Source of the DNA: an uncultured SAR86 cluster bacterium
GTDB lineage: Bacteria; Pseudomonadota; Gammaproteobacteria; Magnimaribacterales; D2472
DNA: 64,000 nt
Assembly: GCA_902591925.1 (NCBI GenBank)
Contig: CACJCN010000003.1
Coordinates: 145,825-209,824 of the forward strand
Direction: 5' to 3'
Shown here: positions 5,101 to 22,166 of the stretch, piece by piece
How the letters are laid out: each line of letters opens with the position of its first letter
Numbering within the stretch: the stretch's first letter is position 1
Notes under the pieces: generated by a model
The model's input: only the letters and a program-made list of their open reading frames with translations
Database searches by the model: none
What the model was told of the DNA's origin: nothing
Made by a program: the position numbers and the translations under genes

Positions 5101-5757
5101 ATGGTAATAATAAGATTAGCAAGGAGTGGGGCAAAGAAAAATCCCTATTACTTTATAACTGTTGCTGATGAAAGACGTCCTAGAGACGGAGCATTTATTG
5201 AAAGATTAGGTTTTTTTAATCCAACAGCAAATGGGCAAGAGGAAAGACTTAGAATTGATCTTGAAAAAATTGATGAGTGGGTATCAAAGGGTGCACAACT
5301 TAGTGAAAGAGTTAGTGCGCTAATTAAAGAAGCTAAATTAACACCAGAGGAATTCGCAGCAAAAGTTGAAGCAAAAAAGGCTAAAGCTGCTGCCAAAAAA
5401 GCTGCATTAGCAGAAAAATTAGCAAAAGAAGCTGAGGAAGCTGCTGCTGAAGAGGCTCCTGCAGAGGAAGCACCTGCAGAAGAAGTACCTGCAGAAGAAG
5501 CACTTACAGAAGAAGAAGCTCCAGCCGAGGAAGCACCTGCAGAGGAAGAAGCTCCAGCCGAAGAAGCTCCAGCAGAAGAAGAAGCTCCAGCTGAAGAAGA
5601 ACCTGCAGAGGAAGAAGCTCCAGCTGAAGAAGAAGCTCCATCCGAAGAAGCTCCAGCCGAAGAAGCACCTGCAGAGGAAGAAGCTCCAGCTGAAGAAACA
5701 CCTGCAGAGGAAGAAGCTCCAGCTGAAGATGATTCTTCAGAAGATGAAAAAAAATAA
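5101..5757 (+). CDS. rpsP: 30S ribosomal protein bS16 with a ~138-aa C-terminal Ala/Lys then (E)EAPAEE repeat extension
   Basis: The first ~80 aa ([41 protein letters not shown]...) match canonical S16. The ORF continues in frame to 218 aa. Confidence 0.9.
5446..5730 (+). repeat. Imperfect 15/18-nt coding tandem repeats (EEAPA / EEEAPA units)
   Basis: Three perfect copies of the 29-mer cctgcagaggaagaagctccagctgaaga at 5602-5630, 5668-5696 and 5701-5729. Confidence 0.9.
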
Positions 5758-6265
5758 ACAAGTTTGTATTGCCAACATAGGAAAACCTAGAGGTCTTAAG
5801 GGAGAATTTTTCCTAAACTCATTCTGCTCTCCAAAGGAAAATATTCTCAACTATATTGATAATATTTTTATAGATAATGAAAATAAATTATCAATCGAAT
5901 ACATTAAAAAAATTAATTCAAAATTTTTAGCTAAACTAAAAAACATAGATAGTGTTGATGAAATTAAAAAATACACCAACATAAAGCTTTATATTTCTTC
6001 TGAAAATCTTCCTGAGCTTAAATCTGAAGAGGTATATTGGCATGATTTAAAAGGAATGATCGTAATTGGACTCAATAAAAATGAAATTTTAGGAGAAGTA
6101 AAAGAACTTAATAATTTTGGCGCTAATGATTATTTAATAGTTAAACCTACGCCTGATTCAGTTGATGAAAAAGAAAGACTAATACCATTTATAAAAGAAA
6201 AATTTATAGACTCTATTGATAAGAAAGAAAGAGTTCTTAAAGTTTATTGGCAAAGCGATTATTAG
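5744..6265 (+). CDS. rimM: Ribosome maturation factor RimM
   Basis: [10 protein letters not shown] motif and position between rpsP and trmD. ATG 5744 or ATG 5729 are both possible starts, and both overlap the rpsP 3' end. Confidence 0.88.
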
Positions 6266-6266
6266 A

Positions 6267-6998
6267 ATGAATATAAATGTTTTAACAATTTTTCCAGAAA
6301 TATTTGAAATTTTAAATTCTGGTGTGATTTCAAAAGCTATGAAAAAAGACATATTGTCAATCAAACCTTTGGATATAAGAAAAAACGCTACCAATAAACA
6401 TAAAAATGTTGATTCAAAGCCATACGGAGGTGGGGAAGGCATGGTTATTATGGCAGAGCCATTGATTAAGACTATTAAAAGTATTGATAAAAGAAAACTT
6501 GGACCAGTTATTTATATGTCACCACAGGGACAATTACTAACTCATAAAAAAGTGATTTCATTATCTAAACTCAAAAATATGACAGTAATATGCGGCAGAT
6601 ATGAGGGAATTGATCAACGAGTCATTGATAACTATGTAGATGAGGAAGTATCAATAGGAGATTTTATTTTGAGTGGTGGAGAGTACGCAGCAATATGTTT
6701 AATTGATGCAATTTCAAGACATTTACCTGGAACTCTTGGAAATAAGGATTCATATCTGAAAGATACTTTTTCTAATGGATTACTTAAAGAAGATGTTTAT
6801 GCAAAACCTGAAATTTTTGATTCTAACAAGGTTCCTGAAATATTATTATCCGGAAACCACGAAAAGATAAATGCATGGAAATCTGAGATGTCATTACTTA
6901 AAACATTTAAAAAAAGACCAGATTTACTTAAAAAAATAAAACTAACAAAAAAACAAAAAAAACTCTTGGAAGAATGGTCATCTAAGGCTATCCTATAG
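6267..6998 (+). CDS. trmD: tRNA (guanine37-N1)-methyltransferase TrmD
   Basis: MNINVLTIFPEIF...CGRYEGIDQRV...SIGDFILSGGE. The ATG at 6267 is 1 nt after the rimM stop. Confidence 0.95.
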   Translation: MNINVLTIFPEIFEILNSGVISKAMKKDILSIKPLDIRKNATNKHKNVDSKPYGGGEGMVIMAEPLIKTIKSIDKRKLGPVIYMSPQGQLLTHKKVISLSKLKNMTVICGRYEGIDQRVIDNYVDEEVSIGDFILSGGEYAAICLIDAISRHLPGTLGNKDSYLKDTFSNGLLKEDVYAKPEIFDSNKVPEILLSGNHEKINAWKSEMSLLKTFKKRPDLLKKIKLTKKQKKLLEEWSSKAIL

Positions 6999-7017
6999 CC
7001 CTTTTTAGGCGAATATT

Positions 7018-7923
7018 ATGAGTGATAGTAAAGAAAACAAGAAAAAAGGTTTTTTTTCCCGATTATTTGGCGGCTCATCCGCGCCTGAAGAACCAAAAAA
7101 AGAAGAAACTAGGATAGAAGATACTAGAGAAATTCCTACAAAATCAGCTCTTAACAAAATGAAAAAAGCTGACATAGTTGCGGTAGCAAAAGAAAATGGA
7201 CTTGAACTAGATATCAATCTAACAAAAGCAAAATTACTAGATGCTTGGGATATTCATTTTAATGAATCACCATCACCAAGCGCAGTTGATGATGCAGCAA
7301 CAGTAATGGCTGAATCTGCTGCTAGTCAAAAAGAATCTATTGCCGAAGATACTTCAGCCGAAGAAGTAGCTCCTGAAGAAGAAGCAGCTACTGTAGAAGA
7401 AGAAGCACCTCCTGTTGAAGAAGAAACACCTGCTGAAGAAGCACCTCCTGTTGAAGAAGAAACACCTGCTGAAGAAGCTGCTCCTGTAGAAGAAGAAGCA
7501 CCTGCTGAAGAGGCAGCTCCTGAAGAAGAAGCACCTGCTGAAGAGGCGCTTTCAGTTTCTTTAGAAGAGAAAACACCTTCTCAGATAATCAATGAATTTG
7601 AATCAAAACAAATGAAAACTGATCTTCCTGAATTCAGACCAGGAGATACTGTTGTTGTATCTGTGAAAGTTAGGGAAGGAGAAAGAACAAGATTACAAGC
7701 TTTTGAAGGGGTCGTGATGGGTGTGAAAAAAGCTGGACTAAACTCCTCTTTTATAGTGAGAAAGATTTCAAGTGGAATCGGTGTTGAAAGAACATTTCAA
7801 ACTCATAGCCCAATGATAGATTCTATCCAAGTAAAAAGAAAAGGTGATGTTCGTCAGGCTAAGTTATTTTATCTTAGAGAAAGATCTGGTAAATCTGCAA
7901 GAATTAAAGAACGTCTAGATTAA
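7018..7923 (+). CDS. rplS: 50S ribosomal protein bL19 with a ~186-aa N-terminal extension
   Basis: The C-terminal 115 aa ([24 protein letters not shown]...RLQAFEGVV...ARIKERLD) are canonical L19. The ORF is open and in frame from the ATG at 7018. Confidence 0.9.
7352..7545 (+). repeat. Coding tandem repeats (acidic P/A/E/V units) in the rplS extension
   Basis: Perfect 36-bp tandem duplication gcacctcctgttgaagaagaaacacctgctgaagaa at 7405-7440 and 7441-7476, with degenerate copies flanking it. Confidence 0.9.
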
Positions 7924-12286: not shown

Positions 12287-13384
12287 ATGGACTTTCAAGA
12301 GTTAAAACTTTCTTTGTCCGAAATGGAAGCAAGATTGCAAGATATTAAAGACAATATTCTTCTTATCGACAATAAAAAAACAAGATTAAATGAAATCGAT
12401 AGCGAACTATCGAAAGAAGAGGTATGGTCTGATTTAGAACTTTCACAAAAACTCAGCAAAGAAAAAACAACATTAGAAAAAAGTATAAAATCATTTGATG
12501 ACGTATCTAGAAAACTCTCTGATTCAGTTGTTCTGCTCGAAGTATCTATTGAAGAAAATGATGATAGCTCAATAGAAGATATTTTAAATGAAAGAAATGA
12601 AATTATGTCCGCACTTGAAGAGCTTGAATTTAGCAAAATGTTTGGCAATAAAATGGATCCATCGTCTGCATTTGTGGAAATTCAATCAGGTTCAGGAGGA
12701 ACTGAAGCACAAGATTGGGCTGAAATGCTTTTAAGAATGTATACCAAGTGGGCGGAAAGTAGGGGTTTTGCTACTGATTTGGTTGAAATATCTCATGGTG
12801 ATGTTGCTGGCATAAAGTCAGCCTCACTCTATGTTGATGGTGACCATGCATATGGATGGCTGAGAACTGAAACTGGAATACATAGACTGGTAAGGAAATC
12901 TCCATTTGATTCAGGAAATAGAAGACATACTTCATTTGCCTCAGTATTTATATCACCTGAAATAGACGATTCCATTGAGATCAACATAAACAAAGCAGAT
13001 TTAAGAGTAGATACCTATAGAGCATCAGGAGCTGGTGGACAACATGTAAACAAAACAGACTCAGCTGTAAGATTAACCCATGTTCCAACTGGACTGGTTG
13101 CTCAATCACAAAGTGATAGATCTCAACATAAAAATAAAGAAAATGCATTAAAACAATTAAAATCTAAGCTTTACGAGTTAGAATTACAAAAGCAAAATGA
13201 AGAACAGCAAATTCTTGAAGACAGTAAGTCAGATATAGGATGGGGTAGTCAAATTAGATCATATGTACTGGATCAGTCAAGAATCAAGGATTTGAGAACA
13301 AATTATGAAACAGGAAATACAACAGCGGTTTTAAATGGTGATTTAGATGATTTTATGAAATCATCCCTAAAAGCAGGCATATAA
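12287..13384 (+). CDS. prfB: Peptide chain release factor 2, encoded as one uninterrupted ORF
   Basis: SPF tripeptide (RKSPFDS) and GGQ (GAGGQHVNKTDSAVR). 365 aa with no in-frame stop around codon 25. Confidence 0.95.
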   Translation: MDFQELKLSLSEMEARLQDIKDNILLIDNKKTRLNEIDSELSKEEVWSDLELSQKLSKEKTTLEKSIKSFDDVSRKLSDSVVLLEVSIEENDDSSIEDILNERNEIMSALEELEFSKMFGNKMDPSSAFVEIQSGSGGTEAQDWAEMLLRMYTKWAESRGFATDLVEISHGDVAGIKSASLYVDGDHAYGWLRTETGIHRLVRKSPFDSGNRRHTSFASVFISPEIDDSIEININKADLRVDTYRASGAGGQHVNKTDSAVRLTHVPTGLVAQSQSDRSQHKNKENALKQLKSKLYELELQKQNEEQQILEDSKSDIGWGSQIRSYVLDQSRIKDLRTNYETGNTTAVLNGDLDDFMKSSLKAGI

Positions 13385-18006: not shown

Positions 18007-19278
18007 TTATTCCCAGTTTAACGCACCACCAACTTGATATTCAGTAACTCTTGTTTCAAAAAAATTTTTCTCTTTCCTTAAATCAATAATTTCTGACATC
18101 CATGGGAATGGATTTGATACTCCAGTAAACTCTTCATCTAAACCAAGCTGTGTGAGTCTTCTATTTGCAATAAATTTTAGATACTCTTCCATCATAGATG
18201 CATTCATTCCTAATACACCTCTTGGCATAGTATCTCTTGCGTATTGAATCTCTAACTCAGTTCCTTCAAGAATCATCTGCGCCGCATCTGCTTTCATCTG
18301 ATCGTCCCATAAATGAGGATTTTCTATTTTGATTTGATTAATTACATCGATACCAAAATTTACATGCATAGATTCGTCTCTTAAGATATATTGAAACTGT
18401 TCTGCTGTTCCTGTCATTTTATTTCTTCTTCCCATGGAGAGAATCTGTGTGAAACCACAATAAAAGAAAATGCCTTCTAAAACACAATAAAATGCTATGA
18501 GATTTTTTAGTAGTTGCTTATCTGTTTCGACAGTGCCTGTTTTAAAGTCTGGATCAGAAATTTCTTGAGTATACTTTAGGCCCCATGATGCTTTTCTTGC
18601 AACGCATGGAACTTCTCTGTACATGTTAAATATTTCTCCTTCATCCATTCCTAGAGATTCAATACAATACTGATATGCATGAGTATGAATTGCTTCTTCA
18701 AGGCTTTGTCTTAGAATATATTGTCTGCATTCAGGATTTGTAATTAACCTATATAATGCAAGCACAAGATTATTTGCAACCAGAGAATCTGCTGTCGAGA
18801 AGAAGCCTAAATTTCTTTTTACAATTACTCTTTCATCTTCTGTTAATCCGTCTTCAGACTTCCATAAGACAATATCATTTGTCATATTTATCTCTTGTGG
18901 CATCCAGTGGTTGGCACTTCCATCAAGATATTTCTGCCACGCCCAATCGTACTTAAAAGGCACCAATTGATTTAGGTCAGCTTTACAATTGATCATCATT
19001 TTTTGATCAACTTGCACTCGACCTGCGTTAGCCATCATTTCATCAAGTTCCTCGTTGCCAGCTGTTTCATCTAGATTATTTACAGCTTTACGCGCTGCTT
19101 CTGCTCTAGATCCTTCACCAATATTACTTGGTTCCGTAGATACTGCAGACACAGCTGGCTGAGGAGCTTCAGGCTTTTCAACTGAAGCAGTAGGTGTTAT
19201 TACTTCTGCTTCAGTTTTTGGCTCTGAAGTGACTGGTATTGTTGTTTCTTCTTTTCCGTATTCGTCCCAATTTAGCAT
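18007..19278 (-). CDS. nrdB: Ribonucleotide reductase class Ia beta subunit
   Basis: 423 aa, Pseudomonas-type long N-terminus, diiron motifs ([15 protein letters not shown]). Confidence 0.95.
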
Positions 19279-19295: not shown

Positions 19296-22166
19296 TTATT
19301 GACATGCTTCACAATCAGGATCGTCCAGTGAGCATGCTGTTGGAACTGGTGCAGGTGCACCTAGTTCTTTTGCTGAAGTCTGATTTACATCAGAACTTAC
19401 CGCGTTTAATTTACCCTGTTGAACTGTAGATTTTTCTGTTGATGTTGCTGCAATTGACCTTAGATAATAGGTTGTTTTCAAACCCGAATACCATGCCATT
19501 CTGTATGTTATGTCTAGTTTCTTACCATCAGCATTTCCAATATATAAATTTAATGATTGAGCTTGATCTATCCACTTTTGTCTCCTGCTGGCAGATTCAA
19601 CAATATACCTCGGCTCAACTTCAAAAGCAGTAGAAAAAAGCTTCTTGATATCTTCTGGTATTCTTGAAATTTCTGAGAGGCTTCCTTCGAAATATTTAAG
19701 GTCGTTAATCATTACATCATCCCATAAATCCAACTCTTTTAATTTTCTTACAAGATGAGGATTTACGATAGTAAATTCACCTGACAAGTTAGATTTTACA
19801 TATAAGTTTTGATATGTTGGCTCAATTGATTGTGTTACACCTGTAATATTTGAAATGGTTGCTGTTGGCGCAATTGCCATGACATTTGAGTTTCTCATCC
19901 CATCTTTTTTAACTTTTTCTCTTAAAGATTCCCAATCAAGTGTCTCAGATCTATCTACATTTAAATAATCACTTCCTCTGTTTTCTTCAAGAATATTTAA
20001 TGAATCTTTTGGAAGTATTCCCTTGCTCCATAAGGAGCCGTCAAAGCTTTCGTATGCGCCTCTTTCTTTTGCAAGCTCTGTTGAGGCATATATTGCGTTA
20101 TAACTTATTAATTCCATACTTCTATCTGCAAACTCTACTGCTTCATCGCTGCAGTATGGTATATTTTGTAAATACAGTGCGTCCTGGAAACCCATGAGGC
20201 CAAGTCCTATTGGCCTATGTTTTAAGTTTGAATTTTTAGCGGTATTAACAGAGTAATAATTAATATTTATGACGTTATCTAACATTCTTATAGCTGTAGA
20301 TACAGTTTTTTTAACTTTTTCTTCATCAAGCTTTCCATTTTTCATATGATTTGCAAGATTAACGGAGCCTAAATTACAAACAGCAATTTCATTATCTGCG
20401 CTTGTATTTAGGGTAATCTCTGTACAAAGATTTGATGAATGAACAACTCCTGAGTGCTGTTGTGGTGATCTTAGGTTGCAAGAGTCTTTAAATGTAATCC
20501 AAGGATGACCTGTTTCGAACAACATTGTAAGCATTTTTCTCCATAGCTCTTTTGCCGGAACAGATTTGAATTGATCCATCTCACCGTTTTTTGCCTTTTC
20601 TTCATATTCTTCATACTTTTCTTCAAAGGCTTTACCAATTAGATCATGCAGTTCTGGTGTTTCTCCAGGTGAAAAAAGTGTCCAGTTTTCGTCTTTTTCC
20701 ATTCTTTTCATAAATAGATCAGGCACCCAGTTTGCAGTGTTCATATCATGCGTTCTTCTTCTTTCGTCGCCAGTATTTTTTCTAAGCTCTAAAAACTCTT
20801 CAATATCCAAATGCCAAGTCTCTAGATAACCACACATGGCTCCTTTTCTTTTACCGCCTTGATTTACTGCAACGGCAGTATCATTTGCAACTTTTAAGAA
20901 GGGAACAACACCCTGACTTTTTCCATTTGTTCCTTTGATATAAGAGTTCATTGCTCTTACTGGAGTCCAATCATTACCTAAGCCTCCAGCCCATTTTGAT
21001 AATAGTGCATTATCTTTCATTGCTGAGAAAATACCATCCAAGTCATCGGGTATTGTTGTTAAATAACATGAAGACAGCTGTGGTCTTTTTGTCCCAGAGT
21101 TGAATAAAGTTGGTGTAGAACTCATGTAATCAAAGCTAGATAGCAGCTTGTAAAACTCTATAGCTCTTTCTTCTCTGTTTTCTTCTTCTAAAGCAAGCCC
21201 CATTGAAACTCTCATGAAAAACACTTGAGGTAGCTCATATCTTATGTCATTACAATGAATAAAATATCTGTCATAGAGAGTTTGAAGGCCTAAATATGTA
21301 AATTGATTATCTCTAGTAAAATCTATTGCCTTTCCAAGCTTCTCAAGGTTAAAGGTTTTTAGTTCAGGATTTAATATATCAAGCTCTATTCCTTTGTCTA
21401 TGTACGCCTTAAATGCTTTGGGATAGTTTGATTCCATTTCTTGATATGTTGATTCTTCAGCAACACCAAGAAAATTTAATGCTTCACTTCTTATTTGATC
21501 CATAAGTATTCTTGCTGTTACAAAAGAATAATTAGGTTCTTTCTCAACCTTTGTTCTTGCTGACATAACAAGACTTGTTCGCATGTCTGAAATTGACACT
21601 CCATCATATAAATTTTTTAAAGCTTCATCTAAAACCTCATTGACTGACACTTCATCTAAGTTTTCACAAGCATCACTTATTAATCCTGCAACTTTTTCCA
21701 CATCAAGAGGTACCAAGCTTCCGTCACCTTTTGTTATATTTATGCTAGGAACATCAGGTAGATCTATTTCAACCTTTTCCTTTTTTCTTTCTTGTGTTCT
21801 TTCTGCTCTATATAGTATGTAACTTTTAGCAACATCAAGTTCTTCCGACCTCATAAGCTGAAGTTCTACTTGATCTTGTATTTCTTCTATATGAAGAGTT
21901 CCACCAGAGGGCATACGTCTTTTAAAAACCTCTACAACATCATCTGTAAGTTCACCAACCTTTTTATGTATCCTTTCGCTTGCTGCTGCATTTCCGGATT
22001 CAATAGCTAGAAATGCTTTGGTTATAGCCACCTTTATTTTGTCGTCCTCAAAAGGAACAACTTTCCCATTTCTTTTTATGACTCTAAGTTTTCCTGGTGC
22101 TGTTGTCTCTATATCGCTAATAGATTGGTTAATATTTTCTTTCTGATTTTGTTGTTGAACTTCCAT
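19296..22166 (-). CDS. nrdA: Ribonucleotide reductase class Ia alpha subunit
   Basis: 956 aa with ATP-cone N-terminus, catalytic NLCTEI and a C-terminal CxxC tail (DPDCEACQ). Confidence 0.97.
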   Translation of the reverse strand: MEVQQQNQKENINQSISDIETTAPGKLRVIKRNGKVVPFEDDKIKVAITKAFLAIESGNAAASERIHKKVGELTDDVVEVFKRRMPSGGTLHIEEIQDQVELQLMRSEELDVAKSYILYRAERTQERKKEKVEIDLPDVPSINITKGDGSLVPLDVEKVAGLISDACENLDEVSVNEVLDEALKNLYDGVSISDMRTSLVMSARTKVEKEPNYSFVTARILMDQIRSEALNFLGVAEESTYQEMESNYPKAFKAYIDKGIELDILNPELKTFNLEKLGKAIDFTRDNQFTYLGLQTLYDRYFIHCNDIRYELPQVFFMRVSMGLALEEENREERAIEFYKLLSSFDYMSSTPTLFNSGTKRPQLSSCYLTTIPDDLDGIFSAMKDNALLSKWAGGLGNDWTPVRAMNSYIKGTNGKSQGVVPFLKVANDTAVAVNQGGKRKGAMCGYLETWHLDIEEFLELRKNTGDERRRTHDMNTANWVPDLFMKRMEKDENWTLFSPGETPELHDLIGKAFEEKYEEYEEKAKNGEMDQFKSVPAKELWRKMLTMLFETGHPWITFKDSCNLRSPQQHSGVVHSSNLCTEITLNTSADNEIAVCNLGSVNLANHMKNGKLDEEKVKKTVSTAIRMLDNVININYYSVNTAKNSNLKHRPIGLGLMGFQDALYLQNIPYCSDEAVEFADRSMELISYNAIYASTELAKERGAYESFDGSLWSKGILPKDSLNILEENRGSDYLNVDRSETLDWESLREKVKKDGMRNSNVMAIAPTATISNITGVTQSIEPTYQNLYVKSNLSGEFTIVNPHLVRKLKELDLWDDVMINDLKYFEGSLSEISRIPEDIKKLFSTAFEVEPRYIVESASRRQKWIDQAQSLNLYIGNADGKKLDITYRMAWYSGLKTTYYLRSIAATSTEKSTVQQGKLNAVSSDVNQTSAKELGAPAPVPTACSLDDPDCEACQ

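Follow-up and report, generated by a model that had tools for sequence, protein, structure and literature searches.

The gene analysed here, rplS for the large-subunit ribosomal protein bL19, lies in a window of 64,000 nucleotides (nt; G+C content 32.5%) from an uncultured bacterium of the SAR86 cluster (order Magnimaribacterales). Positions 7018-7923 of the plus strand, which include the stop codon, hold, according to the list of open reading frames (ORFs) and the translation, one ATG-initiated ORF of 301 amino acids (aa) in the gene order rpsP-rimM-trmD-rplS-xerD-dsbC-hom-thrC, with the genes for S16, RimM and TrmD directly upstream on the same strand; the order rpsP-rimM-trmD-rplS is retained in related loci. 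The rplS start codon is located 19 nt past the trmD stop codon and the closest in-frame stop codon upstream of it is at 7006. Upstream of rpsP follow groEL, one ORF without assignment, a CNNM/CorB-like gene and a gene for a small membrane protein. The features on which the argument rests are the following, with SAP, HeH (helix-extended-helix) and Rho_N denoting domain types, pLDDT the AlphaFold confidence score and TRF the tandem repeat search.

7018..7923, plus strand: rplS ORF for the 301-aa extended bL19 (translation; Pfam L19; fused orthologues in 30 SAR86 genomes).
6999..7017, plus strand: spacer between trmD and rplS, in which TTTAGGC, containing a weak Shine-Dalgarno-like AGG, is conserved 9 nt upstream of the ATG (22 orthologues).
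7039..7074, plus strand: residues 8-19, cationic amphipathic motif like the membrane-targeting sequences of MinD and FtsY (conservation; MinD/FtsY resemblance).
7075..7128, plus strand: residues 20-37, spacer 1, variable, predicted disordered (15-50 aa in orthologues, with drifting sequence; pLDDT <50).
7129..7266, plus strand: residues 38-83, predicted SAP/HeH/Rho_N-type three-helix module (AlphaFold; Foldseek; profile match).
7276..7314, plus strand: residues 87-99, short motif kept in part of the clade, low-confidence predicted helix (alignments).
7333..7557, plus strand: residues ~106-180, acidic E/A/P/V repeat linker, predicted disordered (TRF; composition; pLDDT 31-37).
7558..7581, plus strand: residues 181-188, conserved junction VSLEEKTP abutting the canonical L19 N-terminus (orthologue alignment).
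7582..7914, plus strand: residues 189-299, canonical bL19 domain (PF01245).
5101..5757, plus strand: rpsP for a 218-aa bS16 with a K/A-rich segment and acidic repeats (Pfam S16 at residues 8-68 only).

The Ribosomal_L19 family PF01245 matches residues 189-299 over its entire length (profile positions 1-111 of 111) with 158.4 bits against a cut-off of 22 (E = 7e-47), and by this match the 301-aa product is a bona fide bL19. The preliminary description of this DNA had restricted L19 to the C-terminal ~115 aa and had read the remainder as a continuous, in-frame extension of three parts, which agrees with the single ORF and with orthologues that show the same order of parts. Residues 1-186 gave no match in a Pfam scan, an exact-sequence look-up of the 301-aa product matched no contig, and the sequence of the product shows no hydrophobic stretch of the transmembrane kind. 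Within the extension, the short motif at residues 87-99 is absent or relocated in more divergent lineages. The junction follows the pattern [KQ][VI]SL.E[KQ].P among orthologues, with E184 invariant and P187 near-invariant.

The extension is a property of the clade. Single-cell genomes of SAR86 are the closest genome matches of the window. When one genome per GTDB species was scanned for the pattern, 42 confirmed loci emerged, nearly all titled SAR86, and in all 30 complete genes among them the fusion is one ORF of 242-366 aa with the parts in the same order; of the other 12 loci one (L045) is an unrelated protein, and in the rest the contig ends inside or upstream of the acidic repeat. A search with the full protein in a collection of 5.8 billion proteins recovered >120 distinct full-length clusters of 252-336 aa, some of them labelled 'large subunit ribosomal protein L19' by the Joint Genome Institute. 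The extension of SAR86 bL19 measures roughly 130-250 residues. The preliminary description had proposed an alignment of rplS from SAR86-like genomes and had named absence of the extension from every relative as an outcome that would speak against it; the extension and its N-terminal motif turned out to be conserved, in 30/30 complete genes and >120 clusters for the fusion and near-invariantly in 40 sequences for the motif. As judged from these comparisons, SAR86 (order Magnimaribacterales) combines domains on a universal ribosomal protein in a new architecture that extends across the clade.

The position of the translation start also argues for one extended product. Upstream of the L19 core the only in-frame ATG, GTG or TTG codons are those of M1, M48, M97 and M199, of which M199 aligns with Met13 of E. 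coli L19. The earlier statement that none of these codons occurs between Met97 and Met199, and that Met199 lies inside the L19 N-terminus, was confirmed by a check of the codons. The rplS ATG together with a spacer of 19-20 nt (…TTTAGGC…ATG) is conserved in 22 orthologues, five orthologues are devoid of ATG, GTG and TTG codons over the entire stretch that separates the HeH module from the L19 motif FRPGD, and at the position of Met199 a non-start leucine codon (TTA, CTT or CTA) is found in 14 of 31 orthologues. As a conserved internal start is lacking, a separately initiated L19 of normal length appears to be precluded across the clade; and since the only usable frame for bL19 opens 130-250 codons upstream of the canonical start, every SAR86 bL19 is predicted to be synthesised with the conserved modular N-terminal extension.

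A Nei-Gojobori-type analysis of non-synonymous against synonymous change (dN/dS and pN/pS) among 31 orthologues, in which the alignments of spacer and repeat are uncertain, gave the following values.

N-terminal motif, residues 1-19: median dN/dS 0.12, pooled pN/pS 0.21.
Spacer 1, residues 20-38: median dN/dS not defined, pooled pN/pS ~1.2 (uncertain alignment).
HeH module, residues 39-82: median dN/dS 0.18, pooled pN/pS 0.28.
Acidic repeat, residues 106-180: median dN/dS 0.26, pooled pN/pS 0.40 (uncertain alignment).
L19 core, residues 189-301: median dN/dS 0.06, pooled pN/pS 0.13.

The N-terminal motif and the HeH module are under purifying selection.

The N-terminus of SAR86 bL19 displays the amphipathic pattern K-K-G-F-[FL]-x-R-L-F-G-G. 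Among 40 SAR86 sequences its four hydrophobic positions are occupied by F (40/40), F (39/40), L/I (40/40) and F/L/I (40/40), the exact residues F12, F13, L16 and F17 are found in 40, 39, 37 and 34 sequences, respectively, and the flanking KKK, G, S and R each in 35-39 sequences. The preliminary description had considered this stretch FtsY-like on the basis of an FtsY N-terminus that it cited. The cited sequence was correct, as the N-terminus of E. coli K-12 FtsY reads MAKEKKRGFFSWLGFGQKE (E. coli FtsY and MinD were taken from NC_000913.3), and its N-terminal stretch MAKEKKRGFFSWLGFG does resemble the motif (KK.GFFS.L; FtsY residues 4-15), the second lipid-binding helix of FtsY being KEGFFARLKRSL. 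The motif is, however, closer to the membrane-targeting sequence (MTS) of MinD. E. coli MinD ends with …EEEKKGFLKRLFGG, and its residues 259-270, EKKGFLKRLFGG, are identical to residues 8-19 of the SAR86 protein in 10 of 12 positions, with a common i, i+1, i+4, i+5 hydrophobic register. Hydrophobicity, hydrophobic moment and charge amount to 0.25, 0.36 and +4 for the motif versus 0.20, 0.39 and +3 for the MinD MTS.

The bL19 extension is not an FtsY homologue by its domain composition, because an NG domain is missing, and the motif is best read from its residues as a generic short amphipathic motif and not as a sign of FtsY ancestry. Homology with the MinD motif is unlikely; the likeness more probably reflects a short functional motif reached by convergence. 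The absence of ffh from the locus, as put forward earlier, extends to any gene for a GTPase of the signal recognition particle (SRP) type, as tblastn with E. coli FtsY detected neither ffh nor ftsY in the 64-kb window. FtsY, MinD and Rho, sought in the window for comparison with the anchors and the Rho N-terminus of SAR86 itself, are not present there. The amphipathic helices of MinD and FtsY are experimentally transplantable membrane anchors (PMC6158289, PMC6803595), and we infer that the bL19 motif may bind membranes.

The second conserved part, residues 38-83, is modelled by AlphaFold with a pLDDT of 92-94. The model of the 46-aa segment alone (pLDDT 92) has helices at positions 5-9, 13-22 and 33-44 with an extended loop before the third helix; the full-length model, built from a shallow alignment, is poor outside this module, L19 core included, and was excluded from docking and fold search. 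Structural neighbours identified with Foldseek in the PDB are the C-terminal module of T4 endonuclease VII (TM score 0.81), the SAP domains of FAN1 and 3'hExo, the N-terminal subdomain of Rho and the SAP domain of Tho1, and among viral models phage proteins annotated as Rho_N or SAP with TM scores up to 0.85. The best neighbours thus reach TM scores of 0.6-0.85, yet with E-values ≥ 0.02, which are not significant because the domain is so short.

At the level of profiles, residues 38-83 match the Ku70 SAP domain in the PDB, and the SAR86 profile recovers small proteins that match Pfam SAP (down to 5e-13), Rho_N (4.6e-5) and HeH. PHROG matches of the segment are weak (~1e-3). The assignment of this part to the HeH/SAP/Rho_N type in the preliminary description is supported by the profile search, the Pfam hits of the relatives, the AlphaFold model and its structural neighbours, but the 46-aa segment of the window itself has no Pfam SAP, HeH or Rho_N match at E ≤ 1. 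The HeH module would probably bind nucleic acid, be it ribosomal RNA (rRNA), messenger RNA (mRNA) or DNA, or a partner of a different kind.

Between the HeH module and the L19 core, a distance of 37-170 aa in orthologues, lies the acidic linker. Its tandem array at 7360-7544 has a period of 18/36 nt (TRF), and residues 111-186 are 41% acidic (D/E) with a net charge of -30. Such tails are not confined to bL19. In bS16, usually ~82 aa long, the S16 domain is followed in the window by the Lys/Ala-rich segment and a C-terminal tail of ~110 aa of EEAPAEE-type tandem repeats (array 5431-5729, period 33 nt), which ends with DDSSEDEKK; rimM (from 5729) overlaps the final 29 nt of rpsP. The repeat DNA of rpsP is similar to the rplS array, with repeat families common to both. 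SAR86 bL31 is typically a protein of 145 aa, consisting of the ~70-aa L31 core and a ~75-aa acidic C-terminal tail rich in E/V/A/T (P0329 and relatives; a cluster of 184 sequences). An acidic P/A/E/V repeat, as described before, is hence present as a tandem array, but the repeats of bS16 and the acidic tail of bL31 do not allow it to be regarded as a bL19-specific analogue of the FtsY A domain. Acidic tails are rather a lineage-wide trait of at least three SAR86 ribosomal proteins. Among bL19, bS16 and bL31 the amphipathic motif appears specific to bL19, as does, apart from one possible exception, the HeH module.

The possible exception is a 264-aa bL31 variant (L046 1-1139, gene 285-1079; also P0318, P0319 and L052 5001-5588) that carries the spacer-HeH-acidic cassette of rplS, without the amphipathic motif, inside its acidic tail. 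The left junction (…GTAGCAGAA|AATGCTGATGC…) has only ~4 nt in common with rplS, yet recurs in three assemblies. In one population the cassette may really have been duplicated into rpmE, L052 and P0319 then being reciprocal assembler chimeras; alternatively, all bL31 cassette variants may be chimeras.

A profile of residues 1-98 produced only 82 hits at E ≤ 0.001 among 1.84 billion representative proteins, which fall into three groups: the SAR86 bL19 extensions, large repeat proteins with a signal-peptide-like start and small HeH proteins. The large proteins (P0139, P0148, also P0162, P0182 and L045 from 2441) possess 3-10 tandem copies of the bL19-type motif between acidic linkers, with 5-10 copies and a signal-peptide-like start in P0139 and P0148, and some have Sel1 repeats; in sequence they seem to constitute a repeat architecture without earlier description, the unit of which is the motif that opens bL19. 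The small proteins of 69-130 aa (P0173, P0187, P0188, P0190, P0195; L047-L049, gene 5001-5210 in L047) have an N-terminus that is either transmembrane or amphipathic, followed by a spacer and a SAP/HeH module, and show weak PHROG matches to phrog_38661 and phrog_3281; P0195 is encoded beside phoH among phage-like genes (DNA ligase, phosphoribosyl pyrophosphate synthetase). The occurrence of anchor, spacer and HeH module in free-standing small proteins suggests that membrane anchor plus HeH module is a recurring evolutionary unit, and the SAR86 extension would look like such a unit attached to bL19 via an acidic leash.

These features can be combined in a flexible and weak tether, dependent on avidity, that would link 50S subunits or polysomes to the membrane, a reading which we hold tentatively, as a serious candidate somewhat short of even. 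The bL19 core would be seated in the 50S subunit with the N-terminal extension projecting outward. A precedent is spinach chloroplast bL19c, with an N-terminal extension on the solvent surface beside H100/H101 (the 3'-terminal 23S-equivalent helices) and uL3, by analogy with which the bL19 N-terminus would be surface-exposed and able to carry an extension (PMC5071890, PMC5694952). The acidic linker, repelled by rRNA and by the anionic membrane, would form an extended, flexible leash, at the end of which the terminal motif would fold into an amphipathic helix and associate reversibly with the inner membrane from the cytoplasmic side, in the manner of the MinD MTS and the FtsY N-terminus. As one helix would bind weakly, stable attachment would need avidity, for example through several ribosomes on one mRNA, which would favour the retention of polysomes near the membrane over that of free subunits, and the HeH module would add a contact to nucleic acid or to a partner. 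In its widest form the proposal is that SAR86 ribosomes have their own peripheral anchor, with the bL19 helix and an acidic leash of 40-170 residues holding translating polysomes at the inner membrane, either without SRP/FtsY or alongside them, and with the SAP/HeH module providing links to mRNA, rRNA or DNA; this wider claim, derived from the same domain comparisons, is rather doubtful.

Several observations weigh against such a tether. The hydrophobic moment of the motif reaches only the 76th percentile of the 12-mers from the long open frames of the window, though the MinD MTS is likewise unexceptional in this respect; when the moment was scanned with two scales, the N-terminal motif did not stand out, and these scans were not used as evidence. 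AlphaFold confidence for the motif is low. One E. coli MinD MTS by itself is without detectable membrane binding and at least two copies together are needed (PMC6158289), and a 1:1 ribosome tether would therefore be weak unless multivalent. As the motif occurs in tandem in proteins with a signal-peptide-like start, its target need not be the cytoplasmic face of a membrane. The acidic tails of bS16 and bL31, which are devoid of the amphipathic motif, imply that the linker may have a general function at the ribosome surface. An HeH module is superfluous for a simple membrane tether, and the extension may be removed post-translationally.

The likeness to the MinD MTS (E. coli MinD residues 256-270) comprises the 10/12 identity, the hydrophobic register and similar charge, hydrophobicity and moment. 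In MinD, however, a ParA/MinD ATPase carries the helix at its C-terminus and binding is switched by ATP-driven dimerisation, whereas in SAR86 bL19 it is N-terminal on a ribosomal protein without ATPase domain or known valency switch. With FtsY, which like bL19 belongs to the sphere of translation and membrane targeting, SAR86 bL19 has in common the Lys-rich KK.GFFS.L at the extreme N-terminus followed by a long acidic low-complexity region, a resemblance insufficient for membership, as SAR86 bL19 has neither the NG GTPase domain nor the second MTS at the domain junction and its acidic part is a regular tandem repeat common to bS16.

Chloroplast bL19c likewise has a lineage-specific N-terminal extension, of ~40 residues, largely unmodelled, which emerges at the solvent surface close to uL3 and the 4.5S/23S 3'-end helices, but this is much shorter and is reported without amphipathic anchor motif, HeH module or long acidic repeat (PMC5071890, PMC5694952); the two extensions are alike in position, not in content. 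For the SAP, HeH/LEM and Rho_N domains (Ku70 SAP, Rho N-terminus, C-terminus of T4 endonuclease VII) the likeness lies in the predicted fold and the signature L..MKK.ELV..AK..GL....TK..LI, while the SAR86 segment stays below all Pfam thresholds and its Foldseek E-values are not significant. With respect to the proposed outcome, a large subunit held at the membrane, a bacterial parallel is offered by YqjD, ElaB and YgaM, proteobacterial C-tail-anchored proteins through which the inner membrane binds the 50S subunit (bioRxiv 10.1101/2024.08.16.608256). These, however, are proteins separate from the ribosome that act in stationary-phase hibernation, have a true transmembrane anchor and obstruct the exit tunnel, whereas in SAR86 bL19, which has no C-terminal transmembrane tail, a peripheral anchor-like element would be built into a core ribosomal protein. 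A similar outcome is shared with the ribosome-resident mitochondrial mL45/Mba1, which tether the large subunit permanently to the membrane for membrane-protein insertion, mL45 being a dedicated Tim44-like protein at the mitochondrial tunnel exit, unrelated to bL19 in sequence and position.

Among the alternatives, the one that survives best, though unlikely, is a general decoration of the ribosome surface, in which the acidic tails of bS16, bL31 and bL19 tune ribosome solubility, spacing, ion binding or hibernation, and helix and HeH module dock on the ribosome (for example on rRNA near H100/H101) or on a protein partner and not on the membrane. It accommodates well that the C-tails of bS16, with the same repeat type, and of the 145-aa bL31 (184-sequence cluster) are also acidic, that the HeH, SAP and Rho_N modules among the structural neighbours are nucleic-acid binders, that the chloroplast bL19c extension contacts rRNA and that the possible bL31 variant has the HeH cassette without the amphipathic motif. 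On the other hand, it leaves unexplained why the motif at the extreme N-terminus is near-invariant and nearly identical to a proven lipid-binding helix, and the free-standing HeH relatives bear transmembrane or amphipathic anchors.

A polyprotein or pro-peptide, in which a membrane-anchored HeH protein is co-translated with bL19 for stoichiometry and cut at [KQ][VI]SL.EK.P to release a bL19 of normal size, is quite improbable. Cleaved fusions of this kind have analogues in the eukaryotic ubiquitin-ribosomal-protein fusions and in the cleaved N-terminal peptide of bL27 in Firmicutes, and the scenario would be in line with the conserved junction motif directly upstream of the canonical L19 N-terminus and with the stand-alone anchor-HeH proteins of 69-130 aa, some in phage-like context, that match phrog_38661 and phrog_3281. 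No protease or cleavage signature was identified, though, the junction residues may merely lengthen the first L19 helix (AlphaFold helix 187-200), and a variable acidic linker of 37-170 aa, typical of a tether, is needless in a cleaved precursor.

Even less probable is a nucleic-acid tether, with the HeH module binding chromosomal DNA or mRNA and the helix binding the membrane, whereby the ribosome would be coupled to membrane-proximal nucleoid or mRNA and coupled transcription, translation and membrane insertion would be aided in a very small cell. The predicted SAP/HeH fold and the recurrence of the anchor-HeH architecture in small proteins would fit, and SAP and HeH/LEM domains are generally known to tether eukaryotic chromatin to membranes, but the window's own sequence is below every Pfam threshold for SAP, HeH and Rho_N, and the module adjoins a polyanionic linker that would compete for basic surfaces.

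Finally, an artefact, with an upstream small ORF joined to a normal rplS through a wrongly called start, a frameshift or faulty assembly across the acidic repeats, is effectively refuted and exceedingly improbable: although the gene is broken within the repeat on three long-read metagenome-assembled genome (MAG) contigs (L001-L003) and many short metagenomic contigs are chimeras of the rplS extension with the acidic tails of rpsP or rpmE, the repeat spans the frame break in L001-L003, which look like indel errors in a fused gene, the fusion is intact in 30/30 complete single-cell or MAG orthologues and in >120 clusters, the extension is under purifying selection and L19 is without an alternative start.

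In public SAR86 assemblies, from long as well as short reads, rplS, rpsP and rpmE are often broken, frameshifted or made chimeric within the acidic repeats (L001 4001-5113; L002 4001-4991; L003 4001-5007; L052), which leaves spurious 'hypothetical proteins' of 100-200 aa and truncated L19 and S16 calls. In L001-L003 rplS was called in two pieces; a genuine two-gene state, with 121-155-aa 'hypothetical proteins' followed by L19, was considered and rejected, as the acidic repeat reads through on either side of the frame break, which points to indel errors. Many short metagenomic 'proteins' start like the rplS extension and end as the tail of bS16 (…DSSEDEKK) or bL31, and on one 33.8-kb contig the rplS extension switches into the rpmE tail and the genes downstream of rpmE, chimeras that arise because the acidic repeats are common to these genes. 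Ribosomal proteins such as these commonly serve as phylogenetic markers, and broken calls and chimeric contigs of rplS, rpsP and rpmE in SAR86 assemblies matter for this use.

Some further observations concern other genes of the window. The mechanically called trmD ORF (6216-6998, plus strand) begins at a TTG 17 codons upstream of the start of the TrmD profile, and the true start is probably the internal ATG (M18, ~6267). The gene prfB for release factor 2 (12287-13384, plus strand) lacks the programmed +1 frameshift site of E. coli prfB, as it is a single uninterrupted ORF of 365 aa. The ORF at 18007-19278 (minus strand), adjoining nrdA (19296-22166), starts with a Pro/Glu/Ala/Ser/Thr-rich low-complexity stretch of ~90 aa followed by a conserved-looking region, and may encode another protein of this genome with a disordered acidic extension. 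The window holds one TonB-dependent receptor.

Literature searches on SAR86 ribosomal protein extensions, on N-terminal extensions of bL19 (swamped by 'BL19' synchrotron beamline names) and on membrane-targeting sequences of ribosomal proteins revealed no earlier description of this architecture, and L19 is not mentioned in the report on SAR86 isolates (PMC11582366). As a SAR86 strain, HIMB1674, is available in culture (PMC11582366), the tether hypothesis is directly testable. A membrane-tether function of the bL19 extension is plausible.

To our knowledge, bacterial ribosomes reach the membrane only via nascent chains, SRP/FtsY, SecYEG/YidC or separate factors, of which YqjD is an example. 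An intrinsic anchor of the MinD/FtsY type in a core ribosomal protein would, if true, be a new way to localise translation, and among bacterial core ribosomal proteins SAR86 bL19 would be the first to have a device for membrane localisation built in, and this in a lineage that ranks with the most abundant bacteria of the surface ocean. SAR86 cells are small and streamlined and have much membrane and envelope protein, including proteorhodopsin and many TonB-dependent receptors. A ribosome-borne tether could then bear on how protein synthesis is organized in very small, streamlined cells rich in such proteins.

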